This document shows positions 7,338 through 54,480 of a DNA stretch of 61,893 nt, piece by piece. Under the pieces are notes generated by a model. The model did no database searches, was not told the DNA's origin, and worked only from the letters and a program-made list of their open reading frames with translations. This DNA is from an uncultured Candidatus Saccharibacteria bacterium (GTDB taxonomy: Bacteria; Patescibacteriota; Minisyncoccia; Phycocordibacterales; Phycocordibacteraceae): positions 1-61,893 of the forward strand of contig CAYGGK010000003.1 in the NCBI GenBank assembly GCA_964349555.1. The letters are read 5' to 3'. A program made the translations under genes and the position numbers. Positions within the stretch are counted from its first letter, which is position 1; every line of letters begins with the position of its first letter.

Positions 7338-8276
7338 ATGGCGAATAGACACCTAGCACGTTCCATCGTTCTCCAAACTCTTTTTGAGTGGGACACCGCG
7401 CACGCCTCCGAGGCAGACGCGCAGACGATTCTCGCGCGCAACGTCGCAGAGTTCGGCGGCGACGACACAGATCAGTCGTTCATGGAAAATCTTCTCTCCG
7501 GCGTTCTCGCCAAATGCGGCGACATTGACCTTGTCATCACAAAGGCCGCGCCCGAGTGGCCCTTGGAGCGCATCGCTCCCGTTGACCGCAACATACTGCG
7601 CCTCGGGCTCTTTGAACTCCTTTTTGCCGACCGCTCGCAGGTACCGGCGAAGGTCGCCATTAACGAAGCCATCGAGCTCGCGAAGACCTTCGGCGGGGAT
7701 TCTTCGGGCCGATTTGTAAATGGAGTCCTCGGCGCCATCTATAAAGAGCTCGGTGAGCCAGGGAAGGACGAGCAGGCCGTGAAGAAAAACACGAAGGTTA
7801 AATATGAGGATATGCCTCTCCAAGCGCTCGGCGGGGCGGTCGTCTATGCGAAGCACGAAGGACAGTACTATCTCGCGCTCGTGCACGACGTGTTCGGCCA
7901 TTGGACGCTCTCAAAGGGGAAGTTGGAGCCGGGAGAGAGCCCGGAAGCAGGGACCGCTCGCGAGATTAAAGAAGAGATGGGAATAGACATCGTTATTGAA
8001 GAAAAAATAGGAGAGAACGAGTACGTCGCGTCTCATCCGGAGAAGGGGAAGTATAGGAAACACGTGAGTTACTTTTTGGCGCGCGCCGACTATGTGCCGC
8101 TCAAGCTGGAGCCCGGCAAGGGGGGGCTTGATGACACGAAGTGGTTCCGTCTGCAGGACATCATTGACCTCAATTTTTACGATGATATGCTCCCTATCGT
8201 CACGGCGGCCGTTCAAAAACTCCTGGATCATGCGAGTAAAGAGAAAGGTCTCAACGCCGTAGGTACCGAGCGCTAG
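7338..8276 (+). CDS. nusB: NusB antitermination factor fused to a C-terminal NUDIX hydrolase domain
   Basis: Residues 1-137 are NusB-like (RSIVLQTLFEWD, DRNILRLGLFELLF, AINEAIELAKTFGG, FVNGVLG). Residues ~160-300 carry a perfect Nudix box, GKLEPGESPEAGTAREIKEEMGI. Confidence 0.85.
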   Translation: MANRHLARSIVLQTLFEWDTAHASEADAQTILARNVAEFGGDDTDQSFMENLLSGVLAKCGDIDLVITKAAPEWPLERIAPVDRNILRLGLFELLFADRSQVPAKVAINEAIELAKTFGGDSSGRFVNGVLGAIYKELGEPGKDEQAVKKNTKVKYEDMPLQALGGAVVYAKHEGQYYLALVHDVFGHWTLSKGKLEPGESPEAGTAREIKEEMGIDIVIEEKIGENEYVASHPEKGKYRKHVSYFLARADYVPLKLEPGKGGLDDTKWFRLQDIIDLNFYDDMLPIVTAAVQKLLDHASKEKGLNAVGTER

Positions 8277-22232: not shown

Positions 22233-22254
22233 CAAGGTGCTATAATCACTGCCT

Positions 22255-22974
22255 ATGGACAATAAAATAAACGACAAATACTTTTTACCGGCGACCGTTA
22301 TAATCGCGGGGCTTCTTATCGCCGGCTCAATTGTGTGGAATGGTATGCGCCCCGTGGATTCGACCCTTCAAGACATTTCAGGGCAGGCAGGCTCACCACA
22401 GGCTGGCACCGCGTCTAAGGTGAACGTTAAGAACATTAAGACTGACGGGAATCCTTTCATCGGGAAAATGAGCGCGCCGGTGACCATAGTCGTGTGGGGC
22501 GACTTCCAGTGCCCTTTTTGCAAACGGTTTGAGACCGAAACCCTGCCGCTTATCGTGAAGGAGTATGTGGAGAAAGGGAGCGTGAAAGTCGTCTTCTTGG
22601 ATTTTGCATTCTTGGGTCCCGACTCAATTACCGCGGGCGAATATAATCGCGCGATCTGGAAGCTCCATCCGGAAAAATATGCCGAGTGGCGCGCCGCGAT
22701 GTATAAAGCCCAAGATGCTGAGCACGGAGGGTTCGGCAACGCCGCTTCTATCGACAAGCTAAACGCGACGATTCCCGGTGTTGACGCGGCGAAGGTTGCC
22801 GCTGATGTGAAGGCGAATGCGAGCGCATATCAGGCAATGATGGATGCCGACAAGAACGAGGCACAAAAGGTCGGCGTGGACGCAACCCCCTCCTTCGTCA
22901 TCGGTGCGCAAGTCATAAAGGGCGCTTATCCGTATCCGACGTTCCAGGCGGCGATAGACGCCGCTCTTAAGTAG
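22255..22974 (+). CDS. DsbA-family thiol:disulfide oxidoreductase, N-terminally anchored
   Basis: A TM helix is followed by a thioredoxin fold with WGDFQCPFCKRF (CxxC). Confidence 0.8.
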   Translation: MDNKINDKYFLPATVIIAGLLIAGSIVWNGMRPVDSTLQDISGQAGSPQAGTASKVNVKNIKTDGNPFIGKMSAPVTIVVWGDFQCPFCKRFETETLPLIVKEYVEKGSVKVVFLDFAFLGPDSITAGEYNRAIWKLHPEKYAEWRAAMYKAQDAEHGGFGNAASIDKLNATIPGVDAAKVAADVKANASAYQAMMDADKNEAQKVGVDATPSFVIGAQVIKGAYPYPTFQAAIDAALK

Positions 22975-23033
22975 TTGTTACTATATACAAATCGTACGGA
23001 GCGAACGGTGAACGCTCGGGTATACTAGAAGAG

Positions 23034-25820
23034 ATGGAATCAACGCCGAAGTTGTCTACGCCGGAGGAGGAGCTCGCGTACCTGCGCGAGCAAGTCGCGC
23101 GTAAAGAGGCGGAGCTCTCTAAAAATTCCTTAGCTACCGACACACAGAGCGAACAAGCGACGATTATTTCGGAGACCATTCACGAGCATCACGACGCTCC
23201 CGCCGAGATACTCGCAAGCGGATACCGCATCAGCGAAGCCACGGCTAGGAGCGAGGCAGAAGCGATACTCGCCGAGCTGAATCTCGGCGGGAGCGAGCAA
23301 GCAGTTAAGAGTCTTGGGCAGACGATGGAGGAGAAGGGAATTAAGAACGCGCTTTCGGTGCTTGAGAAGCTCCATGACCCGCATGTTGCCGACGACTTTC
23401 ATCGGTACCTTGTCCGGTATATTGCCTCTGGCCTTGTCGCAAAAGGAATTGACGAGAAAGCGCCGCGTTTCCGGGCGCTCCGGATGACGCTCTACGAAAT
23501 AGCCCTCCCAGAGCCGAAGAATGCAGAGCCGAATGCTCGTGCGAAGACGCTTAAAGAACTCGTCTCCAGCATGGAGCAATTCTACGCAGGGCTCCTTTCG
23601 GTTGAAAAGGCTGAGGGCGGCGAGCCGCATTACTACGCGCTCGAGCTCGCGGTGCCTGCCGATAACCCCGAGCTCCAGTTCTACGCGGCGGTCCCCAACA
23701 GCAAATGCAATCTTTTTGAAAAACAAATTCTCGCCATATTTCCCGACGCGCATTTGGTACCCCAACCGTACGACTACAACGTATTCGCTACGGGAGGGAC
23801 GTCGCTTGCATCGACAGCGCGCTTTACCGAGAATCCGGCGCTTCCGCTTAAAGACTACACAGACTTTGACTACGATCCTATTAATGCGATTACGAACGCA
23901 TTTGCGAAGATAGAACATACTGGTGAAGGGGCGGCGCTTCAGATTATTATTGAGCCGCGCGGCGAGCGGCATGTGAAGCATTACCGGAAGATTCTTCAGG
24001 CCCTTCGTAAAGGCGAGAAACGTTTAACCGCGTTTAGTACGCCTGAGACCGCCCTCGGCGAGTTCGCGCGCGAAATCGGTACCACGCTCTTTTCAAGCAA
24101 GCCGAAGGATGTGCAGAAGGCGAAGGAGGCCGAGACGCGGCAGGTAGAGGCGAACAAGACGCACATTGAGCAGGTGGAAAAGAAGATCGCGTCGCCTATT
24201 GTCGGAACCACGATTCGGCTCATCGCCTCGGGGAGCGACGCGCACAAGGCTGAGCAGGTTCTTGGTGAGCTTGAAGCGGCTTTTAATCAGTTCGCGAATA
24301 CGCAGGGGAATCGACTTGAATTTACGCGGTCAAACGTTCGACAAGCCGCGCGCGCCTTCGAAAATTTCTCATTCCGTCTTCCCGACGCTACGGCGCTCCC
24401 TCTGTCGCTACGCGAACTCACCACTATCTATCACTTTCCGCCCTCCGGCATCGGGTCATCGCCTCACTTGAAACAGGCGCGCTTTACTCATGCGTCCGCT
24501 CCGCTCTCCCTCCCGCATCCGCCCCCGGGAGAAGGTGTCCTGCTCGGCACCAACACTTATCGTAACCAGCAAACCGCGATTTATCTGGAACCCGAGGATC
24601 GTCTGCGTCACCTCTACATAATCGGTCAGACAGGTACCGGTAAAACGGGACTGATGAAATCAATGATTATTCAGGACATTAAAAACGGCGAAGGATGTTG
24701 CTTCATTGACCCACACGGCACCGACATTTTAGACATCCTTGCCGCGGTGCCGCCCGAGCGGTATCAGGATGTTATCTACTTTGACCCGGCCGATCTCGCG
24801 CGCCCATTCGCACTTAACTTCTTGGAATACGACCTCTCGCGTCCGGAGCAGAAAACCTTCATCATCAACGAACTCTTGATGATTTTCCGTCGGCTCTACG
24901 GCGACGTGCCCGAGAGTATGGGGCCAGCCTTTGAACAGTATTTCCGCAATGCGACACAGCTCGTGATGGAGGATCCAGCAAGCGGGTCGACCATTTTGGA
25001 CATCGCGCGCGTGCTCTCCAACAGTGAGTTTCGCCGAGAAAAGCTCGCGAAGAGCATGAACCCGATCGTCAATCAATTTTGGCAGGAAATAGCGACGAAG
25101 GCCGGCGGGGAAGCGTCTCTGGAGAACATCGTCCCTTACATCACCAACAAATTTGACGACTTTACCGCCAACGACTTCATTCGTCCGATTATCGGCCAGC
25201 AGGAATCTTCCTTTAAGTTCCGCGAGGTGATGGACACAAAGAAAATTCTTCTCATCAACCTTTCCAAGGGGCGTCTCGGCGAGAAGAACGCAAACCTGCT
25301 CGGTCTCATCATCGTCGGGAAGCTCTTTATGGCGGCGCTCTCCCGCGCTGACTCTCCGCGCGTGGAGCACCCGCCGTTTTACCTCTACATCGACGAGTTC
25401 CAAAACATTACGACCGACTCCATCCCCGGCATCCTCTCTGAAGCGCGCAAGTACAAGCTCTCGCTCTCCGTGGCGCACCAGTTTCTCTCACAAGTAGATG
25501 AAAAGACGCGTAACGCTGTGTTCGGCAACGTGGGCAATATGGCAGTCTTCCGCACCGGCGAAGAAGATGCGGAGTTTTTCGCGAAGCAGTTCGCGCCGGT
25601 CTTCACCGCGCTTGACTTCGTCAACTTGGAGACGAGAAACGCATACATGAAGATTCTCGCGAAAGGCATTCCGCAAAAGCCGTTTGACATGAAGACAGCA
25701 GACTTGCCGTCCTTAAACCATGCACAAACGGACGACCTCATCCACCTCTCATCCCTGACATATGGACGGGACCGTGCTACCGTTGAAAGCATGATTCGCG
25801 AGCGCTACCTTACGCGTTGA
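23034..25820 (+). CDS. FtsK/HerA-superfamily ATPase resembling type IV coupling proteins (TraD/VirD4-like), with a large novel N-terminal region
   Basis: Has Walker A GQTGTGKTG, Walker B FYLYIDEFQN and the T4CP-like tail EARKYKLSLSVAHQFLSQ. No TM segment was seen. The N-terminal ~500 aa are unassigned. Confidence 0.7.
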   Translation: MESTPKLSTPEEELAYLREQVARKEAELSKNSLATDTQSEQATIISETIHEHHDAPAEILASGYRISEATARSEAEAILAELNLGGSEQAVKSLGQTMEEKGIKNALSVLEKLHDPHVADDFHRYLVRYIASGLVAKGIDEKAPRFRALRMTLYEIALPEPKNAEPNARAKTLKELVSSMEQFYAGLLSVEKAEGGEPHYYALELAVPADNPELQFYAAVPNSKCNLFEKQILAIFPDAHLVPQPYDYNVFATGGTSLASTARFTENPALPLKDYTDFDYDPINAITNAFAKIEHTGEGAALQIIIEPRGERHVKHYRKILQALRKGEKRLTAFSTPETALGEFAREIGTTLFSSKPKDVQKAKEAETRQVEANKTHIEQVEKKIASPIVGTTIRLIASGSDAHKAEQVLGELEAAFNQFANTQGNRLEFTRSNVRQAARAFENFSFRLPDATALPLSLRELTTIYHFPPSGIGSSPHLKQARFTHASAPLSLPHPPPGEGVLLGTNTYRNQQTAIYLEPEDRLRHLYIIGQTGTGKTGLMKSMIIQDIKNGEGCCFIDPHGTDILDILAAVPPERYQDVIYFDPADLARPFALNFLEYDLSRPEQKTFIINELLMIFRRLYGDVPESMGPAFEQYFRNATQLVMEDPASGSTILDIARVLSNSEFRREKLAKSMNPIVNQFWQEIATKAGGEASLENIVPYITNKFDDFTANDFIRPIIGQQESSFKFREVMDTKKILLINLSKGRLGEKNANLLGLIIVGKLFMAALSRADSPRVEHPPFYLYIDEFQNITTDSIPGILSEARKYKLSLSVAHQFLSQVDEKTRNAVFGNVGNMAVFRTGEEDAEFFAKQFAPVFTALDFVNLETRNAYMKILAKGIPQKPFDMKTADLPSLNHAQTDDLIHLSSLTYGRDRATVESMIRERYLTR

Positions 25821-25826
25821 TGACGT

Positions 25827-28595
25827 ATGTCTGAAAAACCTCCACAACAAAAAACGAGTTTGAATTCGCCGAATTTCTATGAACGATTGGGTGTGAGTCC
25901 TTATGCAGCAGCAGGCGAGATTAAAGAGGCGCATCGAAAACTTGCGAAAAAATTGCATCCGGATACGAACGGAGAATTGGATCCACGTACAAGGAAGAAA
26001 AACGAAGATGATTTTAAACTGATTAATGAAGCGTATGACAGCCTTAAAAACAAGGACCGCCGGCAAAGATACGACGACGGAACATTATCCTTTGACCCAT
26101 CGCGAGAGACAAGAAGGGCTCGTCGAGAGCAGAATTTTGCTACGAGAGAGGCAGAAAAGCGACAACAAGGGAGAAAGAAAAAAGAGGCGGAGAGAACAGC
26201 CGCTCAAACGGCGCAGAAAGAGCAACCACAAGAACCGCCTCCAGAAGAAGCGAAGCCAGACGAAAGATTTGAGCCAGCAACGGGTTCTGGCGCAGTACCT
26301 GAGACAGAACCCCAAGTCGATCTCAAGGTCGACGTTAAAGAACCAGAACCGACAACGGACTTTGGCCATGCGTTTAAGAACGCAAAACCACTCACAGGAA
26401 AGAGTAGGCGGAGAAGAGAAAATGGAAATAAAAATGAGGAAGCGAAGAAAGCGCCTGAAGCCTCTCCTGTTGTTGAAACCGAAGAACCAAAAGTAGAGTC
26501 CACATCCAAGCCAGAAGAGCCAACTGAAAAAAAGAATCCTTGGGCTCCAGGAGGAGTAAGCCGTGCGGCGGTACTTGTGGACTTCGCCAAGATTTTCCCG
26601 AAAGGACAAATTCCCGAGAGTGTACATGGGGCTTTAATAAAGCTCATCAACGAACAATACTTGAACTTTTCTCTTAAAGATGAAGTCGCACAGAAGGGAG
26701 TCGAGGAAGAGATATCTAGACTTTTTGGTGAACAGCGTAAGGAGGGAGAAGCAAGGACAAACGCAGAAAAGACCCAAGAGTCGACTGGGTTGGTAAGCCA
26801 GTCTGTCGTAGAGGAGAAACTGCCAAACACGGAACCAGCGCTAGAAACGGAGCCAGTATTAGAAGAAGAAAAAGCTCCCCCTTCTCCGCTTGTCGCAGAT
26901 AGGGAGGAAGCCCTTGATATAGATGCGATTTCGCGCGGAGTGAACGGTAATGAGAAGACGCCAGCGGAATGGAGGAGAAAGCTTAGCTCTCTAATTGGTG
27001 CCATGCAGAAAACAGGTGAAAGTGCTTCCGAGCAATTCAAGAGGTCAAAAAAAATCCTCACAGACCGGGACACGAGTCTTACTGAGAAGGCGAAAACAGT
27101 AGGTAAAGAAACGGGGAAACTTCTTATAGATGTCGGAGAACGCTACCGCAAGCTTCCGCTTAAATATAAAATCGCCTTGTCAGCCGTGCTCATCGGCGGT
27201 TCAATTCTCAGCGGCGTCGGCATACTCGGCACCGTTTTGGCCGCGGCAAAGCTCGGACAGCGTACAGCCGCCTCGCTCGGCGTCTATGTGCTCGTTAACG
27301 GACTCATGGAAAAAAGAATTGCTGATAGAGAAGAAAAGAGCAGGGAGGAAAAGGACATGAATTGGGAGAGGCTCCCAGGAGAAAACAGAATAAAACAAAC
27401 TGTTTCTGTAGGTGCCGCGGCCGCGGTTTTTCTTGGCCTTCCAGGATATGGGATTAAAGAAGGATTTGAAGCCGCGGGTGGTGAGCGCGTGATTGCATGG
27501 CTCGGCGGTATGCTCGGACATTCTGTGCCGACAGGAGCGCCTGAAGTTATTCCACAGCCAGCGCCTGGGCCCGCGGCCGTTGCGGCCGCGGGTGAAGCCA
27601 TCGCTCCTATTGTTGCGCCGGAAGCGCCAGAGTCCGTGCCCGCACCAAAACCAGAAACTGTCTTTGTCGCATCCGTGAACGAACCAAATTTTTCTAAGGA
27701 ACCACCATTAGAGCCAGTGGCCGCCGAGGCCGTGCCAGAAGCCGCCGCCGTCTCTCCGGAGATGCCCGAGACTGAGGTTAAGGCGACGCCCGGCAAGGGC
27801 TACGAATACATGGCGAAGCGGCTTTGGGAACAGTTGCAGGACAAAGGTCTTGATCCGACGCAGTATGCCGAAGGGAGCGATATCCGCCGATTGCTTGAGG
27901 CCGATGCGAAGTCAATTGATACCGTCGTGCATCAAATCGCCGCCGACCCTGCACACGGATTTTTTAATCCTGACGGCACAAGTGTTCTTATTGACTCTGA
28001 CTCGCACATGACAATTAACGCAGAAGGGAACATACAGGTCGGTGACGCGGTTATGGCGCCCGAGAATGCGCCGACAACGCCGGCGTACCCTCCTCCCGAG
28101 GCTCCCTCAGCCGCCGAGGCGTTTCCTGTGCATGGCGAACCAGCACCCCTTCCGTCTGTAGAAGTACCACCATATGAAGTGGCACCGGCTCTGGAACCGA
28201 CTGTTGAACAAACATCTCCCCAGGAAGAAACAGCCGTGCGGTCAGAAGTTATCGCAGAGACCCCCACATTCCTAACGAAAGTTGATGGTGTTCTGATTGA
28301 CCCGCAAACCCCGGCGATTTATGAGGCCCAATCACCCTCTGGAGAAAAGTATCTTACAGCCTATGGAGGAAGCGATGAAGAGCGATTCAAACTTATTCAG
28401 GATTATCTCGCGCGCCCGGAGAATCAGGATCAATCAATCCGCTTTGTGCATGAAGTCCCCTCAATGCTCGGCTCTCAAACCAGGGTAGACGAAATCGGAG
28501 CCGGCACGAACGCTGGAAAGACTTCATGGTTTATTGACTTCTTTAAGAAGCCGATACCACCACCATCCCCAAGCACTTTCCTGAGACGATTATAA
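25827..28595 (+). CDS. J-domain (DnaJ-like) giant membrane protein
   Basis: The N-terminal J domain is FYERLGVSPYAAAGEIKEAHRKLAKKLHPD...INEAYDSL. It is followed by a long K/E/P-rich region, central TM helices and a Pro/Ala-rich C-terminal half. It starts 6 nt after the ATPase stop codon. Confidence 0.75.
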   Translation: MSEKPPQQKTSLNSPNFYERLGVSPYAAAGEIKEAHRKLAKKLHPDTNGELDPRTRKKNEDDFKLINEAYDSLKNKDRRQRYDDGTLSFDPSRETRRARREQNFATREAEKRQQGRKKKEAERTAAQTAQKEQPQEPPPEEAKPDERFEPATGSGAVPETEPQVDLKVDVKEPEPTTDFGHAFKNAKPLTGKSRRRRENGNKNEEAKKAPEASPVVETEEPKVESTSKPEEPTEKKNPWAPGGVSRAAVLVDFAKIFPKGQIPESVHGALIKLINEQYLNFSLKDEVAQKGVEEEISRLFGEQRKEGEARTNAEKTQESTGLVSQSVVEEKLPNTEPALETEPVLEEEKAPPSPLVADREEALDIDAISRGVNGNEKTPAEWRRKLSSLIGAMQKTGESASEQFKRSKKILTDRDTSLTEKAKTVGKETGKLLIDVGERYRKLPLKYKIALSAVLIGGSILSGVGILGTVLAAAKLGQRTAASLGVYVLVNGLMEKRIADREEKSREEKDMNWERLPGENRIKQTVSVGAAAAVFLGLPGYGIKEGFEAAGGERVIAWLGGMLGHSVPTGAPEVIPQPAPGPAAVAAAGEAIAPIVAPEAPESVPAPKPETVFVASVNEPNFSKEPPLEPVAAEAVPEAAAVSPEMPETEVKATPGKGYEYMAKRLWEQLQDKGLDPTQYAEGSDIRRLLEADAKSIDTVVHQIAADPAHGFFNPDGTSVLIDSDSHMTINAEGNIQVGDAVMAPENAPTTPAYPPPEAPSAAEAFPVHGEPAPLPSVEVPPYEVAPALEPTVEQTSPQEETAVRSEVIAETPTFLTKVDGVLIDPQTPAIYEAQSPSGEKYLTAYGGSDEERFKLIQDYLARPENQDQSIRFVHEVPSMLGSQTRVDEIGAGTNAGKTSWFIDFFKKPIPPPSPSTFLRRL

Positions 28596-28612
28596 AAATA
28601 ATTAATAATGCT

Positions 28613-28918
28613 ATGATTACTCCTATGCAAGACGAGCTGACCAAAGCTATCGCCACCGACCTCGGGATTGGAGATTTGCCGATGAACGAACAGCAGGAGC
28701 TCATCGCGCAGTTCGGCGAGGTGGCGCTGAAGGCGGCGATGTTATCGGTCGTCGAGAAACTCGCTCTCGACAAGCGGGACGAATTCGCGAAGCTTGCAGA
28801 AGCGGGGAATCCTGCGACCATTAAAGTGTTCCTTGACCGCGAGGTTCCCGGGCACGAAGATATCACGAAGGCCGCGGTCGCCGAGGAGGTAAAGCGGTTT
28901 AGAGATTTTCAATCATAA
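28613..28918 (+). CDS. small acidic helical protein, unknown function
   Basis: 101-aa ORF in the same orientation as the J-domain gene, which stops 17 nt upstream. No motif recognised. Confidence 0.45.
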   Translation: MITPMQDELTKAIATDLGIGDLPMNEQQELIAQFGEVALKAAMLSVVEKLALDKRDEFAKLAEAGNPATIKVFLDREVPGHEDITKAAVAEEVKRFRDFQS

Positions 28919-28929
28919 ATTAACTTCAT

Positions 28930-29430
28930 ATGAATCCAACACAAACAGGTATCGCCGTAGCGCTCGCATTAGTCGTCGTCGCGCTGTTCTTCGCCTTCCC
29001 TGGCCTCTTGCCATTTCAAGGCGCAAGCGTGCAAGAGGATCAGCAAGTTACCGATACTAATCAAACCACATCTATGCCAACAGAACCCATAGTAGAACTC
29101 ATGATAAAGGACGATGTGGTGGGCACGGGCGCTACCGCGGAGGCTGGTGACAGCGTGACGGTCAACTATGTCGGGGCGCTCACGAACGGCACGGTCTTTG
29201 ACGCGTCTGCGAATCACGGCACCGAGGGTTTCACTTTTAATCTCGGAGCAGGGCAGGTTATTAAGGGGTGGGACCAGGGCATTGTCGGTATGAAAGAAGG
29301 AGGGAAGCGTACGCTCGTTATCCCCTCCGCGCTTGCGTACGGGTCTCAAGAAGTCGGAGGAATTATCCCTGCGAATGCCGACCTCGTCTTCCAGGTAGAA
29401 CTCCTGAAGGTGCAAAAAGCGGCTCGTTAG
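28930..29430 (+). CDS. FKBP-type peptidyl-prolyl cis-trans isomerase, membrane-anchored
   Basis: A TM helix is followed by the FKBP core VTVNYVGALTNGTVFDAS...GAGQVIKGWDQG..GMKEGGKR.L.IP...AYG. Confidence 0.85.
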   Translation: MNPTQTGIAVALALVVVALFFAFPGLLPFQGASVQEDQQVTDTNQTTSMPTEPIVELMIKDDVVGTGATAEAGDSVTVNYVGALTNGTVFDASANHGTEGFTFNLGAGQVIKGWDQGIVGMKEGGKRTLVIPSALAYGSQEVGGIIPANADLVFQVELLKVQKAAR

Positions 29431-46105: not shown

Positions 46106-46513
46106 TCACAAAATCTTTCTCAAACCTTCGGCTGTCTTTGCCAATTCTTCGTCGCTTGGATTCGCTCGCGTACCTTCAAGTAAAGATTTTGAGGTTATAT
46201 CGTGGTAATCGTGCATAGGCACGATATGAACGTGAGCATGCGGAACATCCCAGCCAGCGACAATAAGACCAACTTTTTTCGGATGAGAAAAAGTATTGGC
46301 CACATCAGCTAACTTTTTTACCGCAAACATCAGCTTGGAATAGGACTCATCATCAAGTTTGTAAAAATCGACCACGTGCTTCTTCGGGATGACAAGAATA
46401 TGGCCTGAATGTATTGGATGTATGTCCAAAAAAGCAAAGACAAAATCGTCCTCATAAATTTTATGAGCTGGAATTTCACTTTTTGAGATTTTGCAAAATA
46501 GGCAATCGTCCAC
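46106..46513 (-). CDS. HIT-family (histidine triad) nucleotide hydrolase
   Basis: Has CLFCKI...HILVIPKKH and the triad HAHVHIVP; 135 aa. Confidence 0.85.
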   Translation of the reverse strand: MDDCLFCKISKSEIPAHKIYEDDFVFAFLDIHPIHSGHILVIPKKHVVDFYKLDDESYSKLMFAVKKLADVANTFSHPKKVGLIVAGWDVPHAHVHIVPMHDYHDITSKSLLEGTRANPSDEELAKTAEGLRKIL

Positions 46514-48129
46514 ACCCGCATTTTAACATTTTTTCTATGCTGGTATCTGTTATAGTGCAACACGTGGGGCCTATAGTTCAGCGGTAGAACGCGTCCATGG
46601 CATGGACGAGGTCGGGGTCCGACTCCCCGTAGGTCCACTAGCAACGGTTTTTGAGCCTCTGGGAGGGTAAATACCCTTAAGGGGAGCGATAAAATAGCGG
46701 TTTCAAACCCGCTATTTTTGCTATACGCCAAATTGGCCTCGAAAACGAGCTTTAGAACCAGCTTTTTAGTGTGAATATTGCCTTCCTTCCATTGTTTACG
46801 CGGATTCTTGAGGAAGTCGAAGACGATGTCCAAGGCGGTTTCAATACTCGGGCCATGTTCGGCCAAAGACATGAGGGAATCTTTTAGAACCACGCCTTTA
46901 TCGACCAACGCACCAATGCGTTCCTCGTAAGTGCCGATGACTTGTTCGTTCGTTGCTCTGGCGACCAACTGCACCAGTCTGGCGCGTTCTTTTTCAATTC
47001 TTTCAATCTCTCTTTCTATATCTGCCTGCCGGTCTACTCTCTCAGAGATTTTCTTACGCCACACCTCTGCAACGATAGTCTTCGTTAGAGCCAACACTTC
47101 TACGCTCGGTTTAATATTCCCGAGAATCGCCTCGAATCGCTCGTCTATATCCGCCTTGCGAATGCTCTTATAGCGCTCGGGGCACCCTTTCGTCTTGCAG
47201 TGGTAGTAAGGGAACTTTCCCTTAGCCCAGCTCGCTGTGTCTGGCTTCCTGCAAGCGGCGCACAAAACGAATCCCCTAAGCGGAAAATCCTCGCTGAGGA
47301 AATTCTTCTTGTGTGTCGTTGTCCTTCCGCTCAGTCTATCTTGAATACGCTGGAATGTTGCCAAGTCAATTATACCTTCGTGCTTTGCCGGCCTTCGGCT
47401 AACCTCCCATTCTGGGTAGTCAATATAGCCCGCATAGAATATTTTCGTGAGTAGTCTCTTCACAAAGGATAGGTGAACTGGCTTCCCCTCGCGAGCATCT
47501 CTCTCTTCGAGAAAGCGTCTAACATCTTCTTGCTCTTGGAATCTTCCTGATGCGAACCCCTCAAGTGCCTCTTTAATTATTTCGGCGACCTTCGGAACAA
47601 TTACCGGCAACATCCCATGCACTGGGTCTCTCTTGAAGACATAGCCCGTCGGCATATCAGGGAACGTCCAGTAGCCTAGCTCCAACCTCGCCTTCATCTT
47701 CTGCATCACTTGTCTTCGATTCTGCTCGCGCTCGAGTTGTGCTGTCGCCGCCATAATCGTCTCTACATACTGGCCTTCTGGTGAAGCCGTGAAGACGAAG
47801 TTAGGACACTCTACGACAGCCCTGCGAAGTTCTAGAGCCCTCTTTAGCTTGATATATTGCTCCGTATCCCTCGCTAGTCGCTTCAGGTCATCGAAGATAA
47901 CCATGTAGCTGTTGTAGGGCTTGGCATCCATGTAGGCGAGCATCTCGGTCATTGCAGGGCGTTTCGTATAATCTCCGCCACCAGAGAAGCTATCTCGGAA
48001 TACTTTTTCTATCTCATAGCCCTTACTGCTCGCATACTCCCGACAGCGATGCTCTTGGCTCTCAAGGCCGTGCCCCTCGGTCTTCTGCCGTTCAGATGAC
48101 ACTCGCGCGTATATCAGTGCTTTTTGCAT
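46330..48129 (-). CDS. large serine recombinase (3' end uncertain)
   Basis: Has the N-terminal resolvase motif ALIYARVSSERQ, a recombinase domain, a zinc ribbon CAACRK...YYHCKTKGC and a coiled coil. The ORF has no stop codon until 46330. It therefore runs antisense through tRNA-Ala(GGC) and 184 nt into the HIT gene, and the last ~110-130 aa are probably not native. Confidence 0.8.
   Translation of the reverse strand: MQKALIYARVSSERQKTEGHGLESQEHRCREYASSKGYEIEKVFRDSFSGGGDYTKRPAMTEMLAYMDAKPYNSYMVIFDDLKRLARDTEQYIKLKRALELRRAVVECPNFVFTASPEGQYVETIMAATAQLEREQNRRQVMQKMKARLELGYWTFPDMPTGYVFKRDPVHGMLPVIVPKVAEIIKEALEGFASGRFQEQEDVRRFLEERDAREGKPVHLSFVKRLLTKIFYAGYIDYPEWEVSRRPAKHEGIIDLATFQRIQDRLSGRTTTHKKNFLSEDFPLRGFVLCAACRKPDTASWAKGKFPYYHCKTKGCPERYKSIRKADIDERFEAILGNIKPSVEVLALTKTIVAEVWRKKISERVDRQADIEREIERIEKERARLVQLVARATNEQVIGTYEERIGALVDKGVVLKDSLMSLAEHGPSIETALDIVFDFLKNPRKQWKEGNIHTKKLVLKLVFEANLAYSKNSGFETAILSLPLRVFTLPEAQKPLLVDLRGVGPRPRPCHGRVLPLNYRPHVLHYNRYQHRKNVKMRVWTIAYFAKSQKVKFQLIKFMRTILSLLFWTYIQYIQAIFLSSRRSTWSIFTNLMMSPIPS
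46567..46637 (+). tRNA. tRNA-Ala (anticodon GGC), island-borne
   Basis: Hand-folded, 71 nt, with G3:U70 and anticodon loop ATGGCAT. Its acceptor stem is identical to tRNA-Ala(CGC). The T-loop TCCGACT again has C55. Confidence 0.75.
46691..46718. terminator. bidirectional hairpin AAAATAGCGG / CCGCTATTTT
   Basis: A 10-bp stem flanked by an A-run and a T-run. It lies downstream of the tRNA and inside the 3' part of the recombinase ORF. Confidence 0.55.
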
Positions 48130-48275
48130 GGCTCTACATTAGCACTAGATGAGTCTAGATAATTATCGAGCACGTTCTCGACCATTGCATAAAGACTACC
48201 GCGCAGACGCTCCACCTGCTCATCACTGAGCTTGATATCTCCGAGATATTCTCTACACGCTTCCGTGCTCAACAT
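48114..48275 (-). CDS. possible 53-aa protein overlapping the recombinase start
   Basis: Encodes MLSTEACREYLGDIKLSDEQVERLRGSLYAMVENVLDNYL... and ends 16 nt inside the recombinase ORF. No family recognised. Confidence 0.3.
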   Translation of the reverse strand: MLSTEACREYLGDIKLSDEQVERLRGSLYAMVENVLDNYLDSSSANVEPCKKH

Positions 48276-48277
48276 GT

Positions 48278-48526
48278 CTAGACTTCTTCCACTGGAGAAT
48301 CTGCATCGACAAGACCCCTCTCCTCGTCTTTCCAAATCAGATTCTTTATAACGAGTCCCTCTGTGAGTAACGGCTCCCAGCGCGAATAATTCCGATTCCC
48401 GAGGACAAGATATACCTTGCCGCTTGAACGACTGGCCTCGAATAACTTGAATGTAACGATACGACAAAACTTTCCATCCCGACCCCTAAAAAAGGGCCCG
48501 ATCCATTTAATTTCTCCTCCAAACAT
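48278..48526 (-). CDS. hypothetical 82-aa protein
   Basis: An ORF in the island gene direction. An imperfect palindrome, AGGACTATCGA..TCGATAAAGTCCT, lies just upstream. Confidence 0.35.
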   Translation of the reverse strand: MFGGEIKWIGPFFRGRDGKFCRIVTFKLFEASRSSGKVYLVLGNRNYSRWEPLLTEGLVIKNLIWKDEERGLVDADSPVEEV

Positions 48527-48643
48527 AGTGGTATAGGACTATCGAATAATCGATAAAGTCCTCTCTTGGCTTGGCAGGCCCTATTGCAAGGCAACCCGCA
48601 AAGCCAACAAAGGGCTTTACGACGTGCAATAGGTTTAATGCAA

Positions 48644-48671
48644 AGCAAAAACGAGGCACACCTATGCCTCG
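48644..48671 (-). terminator. rho-independent terminator (minus strand)
   Basis: CGAGGCA / TGCCTCG stem. On the minus strand it is followed by TTTTTG. Confidence 0.6.
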
Positions 48672-48834
48672 TCTCTCGGGATTCGCTATCGAATGACCCG
48701 AAAGACAAAGCAAAATGCTTTTCTTTACGGGTATTCGGTAGCCGCGGGGGAACTTACACCTGCTCCATGGCGCCCTCCGCAACTGTATGCGCCGATGTGA
48801 GAACCGTTATTAGATGTAGCCTACAAGAAAATTG

Positions 48835-49134
48835 TTATTTTTGCAACCTCTTTGACTTAAGAAAGTCCTTTATTCTGTTCCGAAAAGTGATTTCTTTAAG
48901 ACCGATTCTCGTAGCACGACGTCGAATTTTTTTCTTTTCTAAAGTAACGTAAAAATCATCGTCATTTTGTATGAGTGCACTTTCTTCTTTTAGGTCTTCC
49001 GAAATAATCTGCACGCCTTGATAGTGCATGGATTCTTTTATCCACTCGTATAATTCTCTTAGATGCTGAAATTGCGGTGCTCCATTCTGCTTATTCCAGT
49101 CATTCAGTATCTTCTCTTCCGTGTTCTGTTCCAT
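48835..49134 (-). CDS. hypothetical 99-aa protein with basic C-terminus
   Basis: An ORF in the island direction with coding-like composition. No motif recognised. Confidence 0.4.
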   Translation of the reverse strand: MEQNTEEKILNDWNKQNGAPQFQHLRELYEWIKESMHYQGVQIISEDLKEESALIQNDDDFYVTLEKKKIRRRATRIGLKEITFRNRIKDFLKSKRLQK

Positions 49135-49170
49135 ACTGTTATTTAACTGTTCTGCAGCACTGACATTGTT

Positions 49171-49542
49171 TTAATTTTCACACGCCCACCCATCTCCGTC
49201 TCTATCAAGACCGTATTCATCATAACCAATCACTTGAACCATCCCAGTATAATTAGGACCATTACCAGAACCACCAGCACAATCATAGTCTCCAGCGTTT
49301 TTCTTTAAACAACCAGAGTAATTTGGATTGCATTGAGAAGAAGTTTGTATGGGCTTAGGAGTAGTAGGAGTGGGTGTCGGTATGGGAGGATTTATAGTAG
49401 TGGTCGTTTGTATAGGATTTCCTCCTCCTTGAAAGATTTTCCAACTGAAAGGATTCCACCATGCTGCGAAAGCAATCTGAGGCACGACAAGAGCCAACAC
49501 CATGAGACTTAAGAGAGTAGAAAGACGCTGAGTTTTCTTCAT
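49171..49542 (-). CDS. secreted protein with C-terminal Excalibur-type calcium-binding domain
   Basis: Has a signal peptide (MKKTQRLSTLLSLMVLALVVPQIAFA), a Pro/Thr linker and CNPNYSGC...DYDC...GLDRDGDGWACE. Confidence 0.7.
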   Translation of the reverse strand: MKKTQRLSTLLSLMVLALVVPQIAFAAWWNPFSWKIFQGGGNPIQTTTTINPPIPTPTPTTPKPIQTSSQCNPNYSGCLKKNAGDYDCAGGSGNGPNYTGMVQVIGYDEYGLDRDGDGWACEN

Positions 49543-49634
49543 ATAGTTATTAACCAAATGCTACTCTCATCTCAAGGGGGCGCAAGAGGAGATGTTGCGC
49601 AACTTGAGACCCTTTTACCTGCTCGAAATTATGA

Positions 49635-49997
49635 CTAAGACCTACTACTTGGAGCCGGTTCAGACGGAACCAAACCGTTCCTAATAGCAACTTCTTCAGA
49701 TATTTGAAGTGAATTTTTATATTGAGGCAACGAAGAATCCCTTTCTCGGATGACGACTATGCTCATCCCCTCTTGAGAAAGCTCCTCTGCGGTAGCCTGC
49801 GGTGCACGCCCCCACGCTCGGTCAAAAAGCTCCTTTATTGCCCGTATATCGCCCTTCTTGGCTTGTGAGATGAGAGCTTCGCTGATCGGACCAATCTCTT
49901 GTGTAACCCTCTCTGAAAGCAGTTTACGAGCTTCTTCAGCGTTCTTCGCCGCGAACCCCCGCTTCCTCCCTGCTCCTGCTCGGTATCCTCCTCTCAT
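49635..49997 (-). CDS. phage-like small DNA-binding protein (basic GGYRAGAGRKRG N-terminus)
   Basis: The N-terminal G/R-rich motif plus KKGDIRAIKELFDRAWGRAPQ resembles small-terminase/phage helper proteins. This is a weak, motif-level call only. Confidence 0.4.
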   Translation of the reverse strand: MRGGYRAGAGRKRGFAAKNAEEARKLLSERVTQEIGPISEALISQAKKGDIRAIKELFDRAWGRAPQATAEELSQEGMSIVVIRERDSSLPQYKNSLQISEEVAIRNGLVPSEPAPSSRS

Positions 49998-50005
49998 AAT
50001 TTTAA

Positions 50006-50386
50006 TTATACTTTGGACAGATATCTTCCCGAGATTTCAATGAAAACCTTCTCAGCTTCCTTGTCGTAATCTTTCCCCTCAAATTTCGGCTTTAGTCCAC
50101 TCCAACTTTGAGCAAGTTTCAGTGCATCTTCGTGTGGAATAAATAGGTCAAGTAGAGGCTTTATCTGATTCAGTAGTTCCTTATCTTCCTCATCAGTGGA
50201 TGTCACGGAACAAAGTATCGCGGCTTCTTCAATTTGTTTCTTGCTCGCGGGCAGTAGGTCTTCAGAATATAGACCAACCGGACTGTCAGGAGATAATTCA
50301 TGTAGGTATACCCGTAATGCACCAAATTTCTGAATCAATCGTTGTGCGTTTTCTATAGTCATATCCTGATAGGAATTAAATCGCAA
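50006..50386 (-). CDS. hypothetical 126-aa protein
   Basis: An ORF in the island direction. No motif recognised. Confidence 0.4.
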   Translation of the reverse strand: MRFNSYQDMTIENAQRLIQKFGALRVYLHELSPDSPVGLYSEDLLPASKKQIEEAAILCSVTSTDEEDKELLNQIKPLLDLFIPHEDALKLAQSWSGLKPKFEGKDYDKEAEKVFIEISGRYLSKV

Positions 50387-50392
50387 ACGAAT

Positions 50393-50848
50393 CTATAGCA
50401 ATTCTCTTTTTATGTTTTCAATCTCATTTTTGGTTTTTGTAACGGCTTCTGCATAATCATCCAAGTTTTGAAATACACTCCCCGAAGATGCAGATGGTTT
50501 GATGAGCATTTTGAATTTAAATTCTTGTTTGATTATGTCCAACACCAAAGTCTCTACGTCGGGGTATTCCTTACTACAAACACTCTCATCTGCATATTTG
50601 CTGGCACAAAATTCTTTTTGTATCGACTTTAACGAATCGTTCTCGTTGCCCCCGTTTTTCTCGAGCTGCCCTCTGTATCCTTGCAACCAATACCTGATAC
50701 GCTGTTTTCTTCCAGAGTAATAAACGAAATCAAAAACTAGTAATCCAATGGCAATAACTCCAAAAATCAGCCACTTGCCAGTAATATATCCAAGGACAAA
50801 TGAAGCAAGAGCCAGTGGGATTAATGAAATTCTTATTAGGTGTTTCAT
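50393..50848 (-). CDS. hypothetical membrane protein (two N-terminal TM helices)
   Basis: Has hydrophobic segments IRISLIPLALASFVLGYITG and WLIFGVIAIGLLVFDFVYY. Confidence 0.45.
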   Translation of the reverse strand: MKHLIRISLIPLALASFVLGYITGKWLIFGVIAIGLLVFDFVYYSGRKQRIRYWLQGYRGQLEKNGGNENDSLKSIQKEFCASKYADESVCSKEYPDVETLVLDIIKQEFKFKMLIKPSASSGSVFQNLDDYAEAVTKTKNEIENIKRELL

Positions 50849-50866
50849 ATTTTGATAAGAATCAAT

Positions 50867-51202
50867 CTAGTAGCTTTTGAAATCCGTTACCACCTCCGTT
50901 TTGCCATCCGCATTAGTAATTAGATATTTATACTCCACCCTACAAGCGTCATTGAAATCCTTTCCATCGAAAGGATTGCTTGAAGGTTCGTAATATTTAG
51001 CATCTACGACGCTGTTGTGCTGTTCTTTTTCCATACTTCTTTCCCTTTCCAATATCGCATAACACTCCATTCTTCTTTTCCCAATGTATTCTTGTCTGTC
51101 TTGGGCACGAATGGCATCCTGTTTCCCTGAGTAGTCCGCATACAAAAATAAACCCACCACAATTAAACCGATTAACAACACGATTCTTGGCCAGTTGTTC
51201 AT
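50867..51202 (-). CDS. hypothetical N-terminally anchored protein
   Basis: Has the TM segment WPRIVLLIGLIVVGLFLYA. It shares an identical 21-nt upstream junction with the next gene. Confidence 0.45.
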   Translation of the reverse strand: MNNWPRIVLLIGLIVVGLFLYADYSGKQDAIRAQDRQEYIGKRRMECYAILERERSMEKEQHNSVVDAKYYEPSSNPFDGKDFNDACRVEYKYLITNADGKTEVVTDFKSY

Positions 51203-51215
51203 ATTTTGATAAGAA

Positions 51216-52007
51216 TCAATAATCGTTATACACGACCCTTATATTAAACTCCTCAAGATTGACTGCCCTTTCGAAAAGAGCTGAAAACCGGCAAGGCACA
51301 CCTGGTTTCAACGACATAGTGCTGAATGAACGATAAGTGTCACTCGGGTTACCATATTCTCTTAAGAGGTTGCCACAATGAAATACCGAGTCCGCCTGAT
51401 AAACCCTCGCATCTTGGTCTACTAACTCAATTCTTTTCAGTGTAAAGGGAATTGCGGATGATTCCTCACTAGTTATCTGAAATACTAGTTTCGTGAATAC
51501 CCCTGACGATATCTTTGGATTCCATGTGCTGTAGCCAAAATCGTTATCAACCCTCGACCCCAGGTTTGTTCCATTTACAAATTCAAAACTGAGTTTACCA
51601 TCATCGCTTTTGGTGACCCCAGTTCCAAAGGTTACTGCTTGTGGGAGAAAAGAATTGAGACCCGACTCATAACTTACTGTTGATGGTTCTGGTGTTTCTT
51701 CGTGCGTCAAAGCAATGAATATAATTGCTACACTACATACCAATAAAATCGCCCATAGAATTTTTTTACGGGTAATCAAACTCTTCAAGAAAGCTATCCG
51801 ATTTTGTGTGAGAAGAAGATCCGCATTACGATTTTCTGACACAGCAATCTTTTTCCAACCCAAAGTATAAAAAATCAGAAAACCAGGAATCAGGGCGACA
51901 AAAAGAGCAGCAAAAGTTGAGTAATCTGAATTATCTATTGCTATCAACCAAAGAAGAAATCCAAAAACGTAAATCGTCAGCAATTGTCCTTTAGTGATTT
52001 TATACAT
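51216..52007 (-). CDS. hypothetical membrane protein with beta-rich extracellular domain
   Basis: Has three TM helices followed by a ~150-aa domain (FTLKRIELVDQDARVYQADS). Confidence 0.45.
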   Translation of the reverse strand: MYKITKGQLLTIYVFGFLLWLIAIDNSDYSTFAALFVALIPGFLIFYTLGWKKIAVSENRNADLLLTQNRIAFLKSLITRKKILWAILLVCSVAIIFIALTHEETPEPSTVSYESGLNSFLPQAVTFGTGVTKSDDGKLSFEFVNGTNLGSRVDNDFGYSTWNPKISSGVFTKLVFQITSEESSAIPFTLKRIELVDQDARVYQADSVFHCGNLLREYGNPSDTYRSFSTMSLKPGVPCRFSALFERAVNLEEFNIRVVYNDY

Positions 52008-54458: not shown

Positions 54459-54480
54459 GGGTTCTCGAGCATATTGATTG

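Follow-up and report, generated by a model that had tools for sequence, protein, structure and literature searches.

A coupling-protein-like ATPase, a variable membrane protein and a small helical protein as a recurring module in Paceibacteria, with folding enzymes merely alongside

In this study, we analyzed a block of five co-oriented genes (positions 22255-29430, + strand) within a stretch of 61,893 nucleotides (nt) from contig CAYGGK010000003.1 of assembly GCA_964349555.1, hereafter the window, which encodes a DsbA-like oxidoreductase, an ATPase related to type IV coupling proteins (T4CPs), a large membrane protein with a J-domain, a small acidic protein and an FKBP isomerase. Comparison with related loci showed that the conserved core is a three-gene module consisting of the ATPase, the large membrane protein encoded behind it (working name BIG) and a helical protein of ~100 amino acids (aa). 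The module is one more copy of a known, unexplained motor module, rather than a dedicated folding machine; what is specific to the window is the fusion of a J-domain to BIG and the chance juxtaposition of the DsbA gene, which create the impression of a folding machine. Our reading, to which we give a probability of roughly 0.6, is that the block is a composite and not one machine, and that its ATPase, as a best guess, is a translocation motor that docks at the membrane and whose envelope partners differ between lineages.

The initial annotation, made from the letters of the window, had described the five genes, which lie downstream of rpoB-rpoC; their coordinates were recovered as first stated and all quoted motifs were read again in the translations, whereas its system-level reading as a folding machine is not supported. 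The main value of the finding is negative, since the combination of a translocase with three folding factors arose by chance, from the order of genes at this locus together with a single rare domain fusion, and should not be treated as a system in further work. The module itself is real, uncharacterized and moderately interesting. Much of bacterial diversity belongs to the Patescibacteria, which are believed to depend on other cells, and little is known of how DNA and proteins cross their envelopes. Nearly all Paceibacteria encode the ATPase family in a strongly conserved form, and the literature only counts its members among T4CP homologs away from virB4. Experimental handles are offered by the VirB4-like front half of the ATPase, by the hyper-variable envelope protein with its small helical partner, and by an anchored, free-standing copy of the front half that is found in every relative.

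A recurring three-gene module

A total of 108 loci, obtained by two independent retrievals, were compared, and features were counted per locus. Loci with an ATPase identity of at least 59 % were taken as the Kaiserbacteria clade, comprising 47 non-redundant loci; downstream counts refer to the 34 of these with at least 4.5 kilobases (kb) of downstream DNA and upstream counts to 24, and the corresponding numbers for other families are 38 and 45. BIG was present at 28 of the 34 clade loci, as an open reading frame (ORF) of 583-1417 aa starting 0-64 nt after the ATPase. The small protein was likewise present at 28 loci, both together at 26 and neither at four. As these four loci fall in two places of the ATPase tree, the pair was lost on at least two occasions. 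Members of the small-protein family were detected at 38 loci and in every case close to the ATPase. Two of these loci (L091 and L132) belong to other families; there, too, the ATPase is followed by a large ORF and the small protein, and the gene after these is DNA polymerase III delta'-like at one locus and flavodoxin-like at the other. These results showed that BIG and the small protein form an accessory pair, gained or lost together. The pairing of ATPase and BIG, for which the initial annotation had pointed to the 6-nt gap between the two genes, is a real and recurring linkage. The match of the small protein to DUF5663 (aa 45-95, 22.7 bits, E 1.5e-4) stays below the Pfam cut-off of 23.7 bits. 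Coordinates of all features are listed in Table 1.

The ATPase is more widely distributed than its partners. A full-length ortholog was identified in 41 of 41 genomes of the order, with identities of 40-83 %, and more than 574 relatives were found in species-representative genomes, among them Kaiser-, Nomura-, Taylor- and Zambryskibacteria and Paceibacter. The window covers a housekeeping region of a genome of 674 kb (98.5 % complete), and homologs of its proteins carry the names Candidatus Kaiserbacteria or Paceibacteria. Our analyses showed that the ATPase gene of Paceibacteria is chromosomal, is passed on vertically and is strongly conserved; each genome has two T4CP-like paralogs, of which this is the long one.

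Gene order around the long ATPase in other families follows a different pattern, with secY-adk-map upstream at 17 of 45 loci and ndk downstream within 2.2 kb at 18 of 38. At loci L022-L029, L095, L106, L113, L115, L119, L133, L134 and others, the long ATPase ends the ribosomal-protein operon (secY-adk-map) and ndk comes next; at L022, ndk is followed in turn by genes of type IV pili (PilB, PilC, pseudopilins). A separate variant was observed at L031 (G034:C1), where a 789-aa long-ATPase form has a hydrophobic transmembrane segment in place of the N-terminal helical region and so represents an anchored fused variant.

Table 1. Features of the five-gene block and related genes of the same genome. 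Positions refer to the window unless another contig (C2, C9) is given.
Feature	Position	Strand	Remarks
DsbA-like thiol-disulfide oxidoreductase, 239 aa	22255-22974	+	neighbor, not a conserved module member
ATPase	23034-25820	+	928 aa; TraG-D_C and DUF87 above Pfam cut-offs
ATPase, N-terminal helical/coiled-coil region, aa 1-148	23034-23477	+	AlphaFold2 helices over aa 10-131; aa 1-131 modeled as soluble helices
ATPase, VirB4-NTD-like domain, aa 149-499	23478-24530	+	AlphaFold2/PDB fold match; PF26449 in precomputed annotation
ATPase, T4CP (TrwB/VirD4)-type P-loop engine, aa 500-928	24531-25820	+	Walker A GQTGTGKT, Walker B YIDEFQN, TraG-D_C tail
BIG, 922-aa fast-evolving membrane protein	25827-28595	+	variable partner of the ATPase; 6 nt after ATPase stop
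BIG, J-domain, aa 16-83, HPD at aa 44	25872-26075	+	PF00226 62.7 bits (cut-off 27.8), E 3.6e-17
BIG, hydrophobic Gly/Ala-rich membrane core, aa ~447-545	27165-27461	+	hydropathy peaks aa 449-467 (2.17) and 522-540
BIG, ~90-aa conserved domain, aa 651-743	27777-28055	+	40-72 % identity in closest relatives; presumed extracytoplasmic
Small helical acidic protein, DUF5663-like	28613-28918	+	101 aa
FKBP peptidyl-prolyl isomerase, membrane-anchored	28930-29430	+	FKBP_C; neighbor conserved in the Kaiserbacteria clade only
Free-standing membrane-anchored paralog of the ATPase N-domain, 454 aa	58498-59862	+	anchor aa 29-47; motor-less
VirB4-like ATPase, 607 aa	C2:86.9-92.1 kb cluster		P-loop_TraG 2.8e-26
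PrgI/VirB3, 147 aa	C2:86.9-92.1 kb cluster		2e-9; next to the 607-aa VirB4-like gene
Type IV secretion pilin, 226 aa	C2:86.9-92.1 kb cluster		3e-11
Short T4CP-like paralog, 599 aa	C9:5173-7532 (locus L002 1456-3815)		TrwB_AAD_bind 1.5e-10; Pro/Gln-rich tail

Domain plan of the ATPase and known systems

The translated ATPase contains Walker A GQTGTGKTG, Walker B LYIDEFQN and the tail RKYKLSLSVAHQFLSQ. Profile searches against T4CP families, which the initial annotation had recommended, gave matches over the Pfam cut-offs for TraG-D_C (26.3 bits against 22, E 7.5e-6) and DUF87 (E 1.1e-5), with TrwB_AAD_bind just under its cut-off (19.6 bits against 20.5, E 4.8e-4). The NCBIfam models of T4CPs all remained far under theirs (SXT_TraD 47.3 against 366, CD1115 39.5 against 250, TOL_TraD 33 against 648), and the VirD4-like CD1115 profile spanned aa 521-847. 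Meanwhile, the VirB4 model TIGR00929 reached 14.1 bits against a 643-bit cut-off, and PF03135 (CagE_TrbE_VirB) had zero matches anywhere in the genome. Alignment of 58 ATPase sequences revealed invariant catalytic residues (G531-K537, D787/E788 and R805-K806...Q816). A conserved PEEELxYLR motif lies in the region of aa 1-148, and the precomputed annotation lists PF26449 for the N-domain of all homologs. The ATPase is soluble, with no hydrophobic segment in aa 1-500 by hydropathy analysis; its one peak, at aa 752-770 (1.57), falls on a conserved helix in the core of the ATPase domain and is not a transmembrane segment.

Because a PDB sequence search with the ATPase returned no matches, its predicted fold was compared instead. 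The full-length AlphaFold2 model, built with 58 sequences, had a mean predicted local distance difference test (pLDDT) score of 85. In Foldseek its back half fitted TrwB (TMt 0.62-0.67, root-mean-square deviation (rmsd) 4.4-5 Å), and the best overall matches of the full-length model were TrwK/VirB4 of R388 (E 2e-14). When aa 1-505 were modeled alone (pLDDT 87, predicted template modeling score 0.81), 13 significant PDB matches were obtained, all of which were TrwK/VirB4 chains (E 4e-5 to 7e-4, ~400-440 columns), and the next match had an E value of 0.05. The likeness of the N-domain to VirB4, as judged from the model, appears remote but specific. A helical block (aa 606-734) is predicted at the place of the all-alpha domain of T4CPs, where the alignment to the TrwB_AAD_bind profile is short, covering only profile positions 9-54. 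As modeled, then, the ATPase joins a domain plan like that of VirB4 to an engine of the T4CP type, and the transmembrane anchor typical of canonical T4CPs is absent.

With the T4CPs TrwB (R388), VirD4, TraD, DotL and Cag-beta, the ATPase has in common the TrwB-like P-loop fold and the TraG-D_C motif block, and its model places a helical insertion where these proteins carry their all-alpha domain. It differs from them in having no N-terminal transmembrane anchor, no detected relaxase or adjacent type IV secretion system (T4SS) and a ~500-aa N-terminal extension, as well as in its sub-cut-off NCBIfam scores, vertical inheritance and housekeeping context. With VirB4 (TrwK of R388) it shares a two-domain plan, in which a ~350-aa N-domain precedes a RecA-like ATPase, but it lacks the CagE_TrbE_VirB signature and an adjoining VirB3, its engine half is closer to T4CPs, and the same genome encodes a genuine, separate VirB4-like protein together with PrgI. 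A recent survey of 2,918 Patescibacteria genomes reported 5,713 VirD4-like T4CP homologs, just 148 of which lie close to virB4, and left exaptation open (Quinonero-Coronel et al., 2025, Microb Genom, PMC12102498). Similar to the ATPase, these orphan homologs are chromosomal, lie away from virB4, occur at ~2 copies per genome and have no relaxase (PMC12102498). The gene family is already catalogued in this way, but as a count only: the survey counts genes, and the VirB4-like N-domain, the cassette of BIG and the small protein, the free-standing N-domain paralog and the J-domain fusion are not described in it (PMC12102498).

BIG and the folding enzymes beside the module

In BIG, the J-domain is followed by an E/K-rich region, the membrane core and a Pro/Ala-rich acidic C-terminal half, in which the conserved domain of aa 651-743 is flanked by Pro/Ala-rich, acidic linkers (P 21 %, A 21 %). 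A central hydrophobic segment occurs in most BIG homologs, with 25-37 % identity in the core region. Conservation is confined to aa ~360-570 and 651-743, even toward the sister genome G022, whose ATPase is 82 % identical. A jackhmmer search with aa 651-743 recovered 18 ORFs, each of which encodes a BIG protein from the closest clade, and Pfam searches of seven BIG proteins found no domain besides DnaJ, which was present in two. Such an architecture suggests that BIG may be a surface-exposed, host-facing protein under diversifying pressure.

The canonical HPD J-domain that had been annotated in this membrane protein was confirmed, but it is rare in the family. By phmmer, only two of 45 proteins in the BIG position carried a J-domain, namely those of the window and of genome G014 (Pfam 2.9e-20 in the latter), and among 43 BIG homologs in a collection of 5.8 billion proteins PF00226 was found only in the window's own. 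Identity between the two J-domains is 39 % (38.9 bits), and each is 40-43 % identical to canonical DnaJ (50-52 bits). In the ATPase tree the window is sister to the J-less G022 (support 96/89); the two carriers belong to different subclades, each with a near relative that has no known J-domain. Given that the two copies are no closer to one another than to canonical DnaJ and that they sit in separate subclades beside J-less near relatives, two gains are the simplest account, and the J-domain is probably a lineage-specific N-terminal addition acquired twice independently. "HPD" strings were also noticed in ORFs near other ATPase loci; the one that was checked, in a 213-aa ORF at L091, belongs to a DNA polymerase III delta'-like protein and was rejected as a J-domain.

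The genome encodes one DnaK and one canonical DnaJ (C1:166207-167301, adjoining DnaK). BIG is not a canonical DnaJ with a G/F region and zinc-finger and C-terminal substrate-binding domains; its score with TIGR02349 (59.6 bits against 377) derives from the J-domain only. An HPD J-domain on a large non-DnaJ membrane or envelope protein is also known from DjlA of E. coli, TopJ of the Mycoplasma terminal organelle and Sec63 of the ER translocon. TopJ, from a bacterium with a minimal genome, likewise has its J-domain at the N-terminus and, in addition, a long region that is acidic and rich in Pro. The NCBIfam models for TopJ (53.3 against 300 and 46.4 against 512) and DjlA (19.4 against 162) matched BIG in the J-domain only, so it is not a member of these families. 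Furthermore, the BIG family is normally without a J-domain, unlike TopJ, DjlA and Sec63, and the J-domain of Sec63 is lumenal whereas that of BIG must be cytoplasmic (cis).

The two remaining genes of the block encode typical folding enzymes. The DsbA-like protein matched Thioredoxin_4 (98.9 bits, 4.5e-28) and DSBA (45.7 bits, 8.7e-12), with CPFC at aa 86, and FKBP matched FKBP_C over profile positions 4-94 of 94 (111.8 bits against a cut-off of 21.1, 2e-32); the membrane anchoring assigned to both by the initial annotation is borne out by hydrophobic segments at aa 11-29 and aa 8-26, respectively. This shared anchoring, the common orientation of the five genes and gaps of 6-59 nt (22, 59, 6, 17 and 11 nt at the block) would suit a single envelope apparatus, in which the ATPase translocates while DsbA, FKBP and an Hsp70 recruited by the J-domain fold or handle the substrate. 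Two features of gene order in the clade also agree with it. FKBP lies downstream at 34 of 34 clade loci, and DsbA is encoded 1.4-4.6 kb upstream, on the same strand, at 11 of 24; these are, without exception, the 11 informative loci of the subclade whose ATPase identity is 70 % or more. Yet DsbA stands directly beside the ATPase in this genome only, which is also the only one with rpoC upstream of the locus; in relatives one to five unrelated genes, membrane-protein genes, lie between, and no DsbA was found within 8 kb of the ATPase in the 59-67 % subclade or at any of 45 loci of other families. FKBP remains with tgt and uvrB at the four loci that lack both BIG and the small protein, being there the first gene after the ATPase, and it is near the ATPase at only one of 38 loci of other families, being missing from 37. 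The order FKBP-tgt-uvrB is kept equally faithfully, so synteny at this depth reflects inheritance and not function. In addition, the trios of other families lead into the polymerase-subunit or flavodoxin-like genes named above rather than into FKBP, and -10-like boxes right before the ATG codons of DsbA and the ATPase suggest separate transcription starts. The single apparatus was the proposal of the initial annotation, which had named synteny in related genomes as its test, and on that test it fails: with a J-domain in two of ~45 BIG proteins (one of 43 database homologs), DsbA never adjacent in relatives and FKBP placed by inherited order, it is unsupported, and we regard it as highly improbable. 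DsbA and FKBP are folding enzymes of an ordinary kind, anchored and extracytoplasmic, whose genes merely adjoin the module.

A scan of 22.0-30.4 kb for transcription signals gave counts not above those of shuffled sequence (promoter-like 7 against 4.1±2.0, terminator-like 12 against 10.4±3.7). By eye, -10-like hexamers were recognized before DsbA (TATAAT in 22239-22254, 7 nt 5' of the ATG) and before the ATPase ATG (TATACT in 23019-23033), both at 7-9 nt, and a further one before the start of the small protein (AATAAT in 28600-28612). The three hexamers lie 3-9 nt from the starts and have no Shine-Dalgarno sequence, which would be consistent with leaderless mRNA, a pattern that the initial annotation had noted elsewhere in the window. 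No -10-like box precedes the start of BIG, 6 nt from the ATPase stop. The boxes before DsbA and the ATPase are a weak hint of separate leaderless transcripts.

Possible roles of the motor and related genes of the genome

If the block is a composite around a membrane-docked motor, as we prefer, the ATPase would act as a hexameric translocation motor like its structural relatives, without a membrane anchor of its own. It would dock at the membrane through its VirB4-like domain, on BIG or on a dnaA-proximal T4SS, and would move a macromolecule, either DNA or unfolded protein, into the envelope or through it. BIG would be a lineage-specific envelope partner of the motor or else its substrate or cargo, with a cytoplasmic N-terminus, as required by a J-domain that must be cytoplasmic, followed by the membrane core, a Pro/Ala stalk and domains outside, and in this lineage the J-domain could bring the single DnaK to the cytoplasmic face of BIG. 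Several observations weigh against this reading. The superposition of the N-domain on VirB4 is geometrically loose (TMq 0.27-0.34, rmsd 7-11 Å, ~10 % identity), and the orthologs in most other families have neither BIG nor the small protein, so BIG is not a universal docking site. The topology proposed for BIG is deduced from hydropathy and the need for a cytoplasmic J-domain, and, as far as gene order goes, the constant presence of FKBP behind the module in the clade may reflect a functional tie.

Genes related to T4SS were found elsewhere in the genome. The initial annotation had stated that the window has no other T4SS components, which holds for the window only: in the genome, genes for a VirB4-like ATPase, PrgI and a pilin are present on C2 and a shorter T4CP-like ATPase on C9. 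The C2 cluster (~85.6-92.9 kb) lies beside dnaA/dnaN (81.8-84.4 kb) and matches the dnaA-proximal T4SS reported for Patescibacteria (PMC12102498). It also contains a gene for a 213-aa protein upstream of the VirB4-like gene, without a Pfam match and possibly a TrsD-type N-part of VirB4, and genes for two secreted proteins of unknown family. The Pfam models Relaxase, Mob_Pre and MobA_MobL had no match in the 98.5 %-complete genome, other relaxase classes not having been searched; given this and the housekeeping context of the gene, the earlier statement that the ATPase belongs to no classical conjugative system holds. The ATPase was also considered as a replacement for FtsK, and this was rejected because a genuine FtsK is encoded in the genome (FtsK_SpoIIIE 4.2e-63).

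The short paralog is 41 % identical to the long ATPase over the engine, and its stop is overlapped by 4 nt by a gene for a ComEA-like HHH_3 protein (2.1e-19). In relatives the gene after the short paralog encodes a ComEA-like protein (four loci of the genus), an LTD+PKD surface protein or a glycosyltransferase. ComEA as a universal neighbor was rejected, because ten downstream proteins, mostly from other families, comprised five LTD+PKD proteins and five glycosyltransferases. There are hints that the short ATPase and its ComEA-like or LTD+PKD neighbor form a DNA-handling pair. The membrane protein encoded from 58498 was considered as a paralog of the J-domain protein, and this was rejected because the two show no similarity (best E 0.41); it is instead a paralog of the N-terminal domain of the ATPase, as indicated by BLASTP (E 5e-5, ATPase aa 191-494) and by hhalign of its family with the N-domain (probability 99.5 %, E 2.3e-23, aa 86-454 on aa 149-499). 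This family is single-copy in 41 of 41 relatives of the order. The 58498 gene is flanked by a sigma-r4/HARE-HTH gene on one side and by mltG/yceG on the other, with its stop and the start of mltG overlapping. The 58498 protein and the short ATPase could together be a split version of the long fused protein.

The composition of the genome raises two further possibilities for the long ATPase. One, which we consider possible though doubtful, is that it is the coupling protein of the dnaA-proximal T4SS and delivers effectors or DNA to the host, with BIG and the small protein as substrates or adaptors. The genome does possess the VirB4-like, PrgI/VirB3 and pilin genes of such a system, T4CP genes are often remote from virB4 (PMC12102498), and the engine half of the ATPase is TrwB-like; however, each genome has two T4CP-like paralogs with different partners, the transmembrane anchor of canonical T4CPs is missing, and a VirB4-like N-domain would duplicate the role of VirB4. 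Moreover, the T4CP homolog of Southlakia epibionticum was reported to be non-essential for epibiotic growth, whereas the other T4SS genes were essential (PMC12102498). The ATPase family might otherwise serve in DNA uptake or nucleotide scavenging, the long form being a second DNA pump beside the short paralog coupled to ComEA or LTD proteins. Bacteria of the candidate phyla radiation (CPR) have no nucleotide synthesis and are considered DNA scavengers (PMC6744442), and both the ComEA-like and LTD+PKD genes behind the short paralog and the ndk gene behind the long ATPase in other families would fit. Nevertheless, we find this explanation unlikely, as the link to a DNA receptor belongs to the short paralog and not to the long one, BIG has no DNA-binding domain recognizable by Pfam, and the position of ndk may simply reflect how genes are arranged where the ribosomal-protein operon ends.

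A more far-reaching idea starts from the J-domain fused to the N-terminus of BIG in two lineages, apparently by independent events, which might indicate that the module of ATPase and BIG handles unfolded polypeptide. In these ultra-small episymbionts it would then carry out an Hsp70-assisted, coupling-protein-driven export or display of a giant surface protein, distinct from Sec, Tat and classical T4SS; we offer this as a long shot.

Other features of the genome were recorded in passing. Two type IV pilus gene sets were recognized by eye from ORF N-termini and weak P-loop matches to the FtsK profile only, one at C10:708-8955 (PilM-like, PilB of 595 aa, PilT of 353 aa, PilC and a pilin) and the other at C2:99.7-105.1 kb (pseudopilins, PilC and PilB of 610 aa). 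Within the window, positions 46330-52007 hold a gene for a large serine recombinase of 599 aa (Resolvase + Recombinase + Zn_ribbon_recom) beside a cluster of five tRNA genes, and the coordinates of the tRNA-Ala GGC gene among them place it inside the recombinase ORF or antisense to it; G+C is 39-48 % at 46-52 kb against ~54 % elsewhere, and the region is probably an integrated mobile element. Two genes of the window carry an additional NUDIX domain: a leucyl-tRNA synthetase (54478-57297) has one inserted at aa 385-504 (4e-13), and a NusB protein (7338-8276) is fused to one at its C-terminus (6.5e-14).

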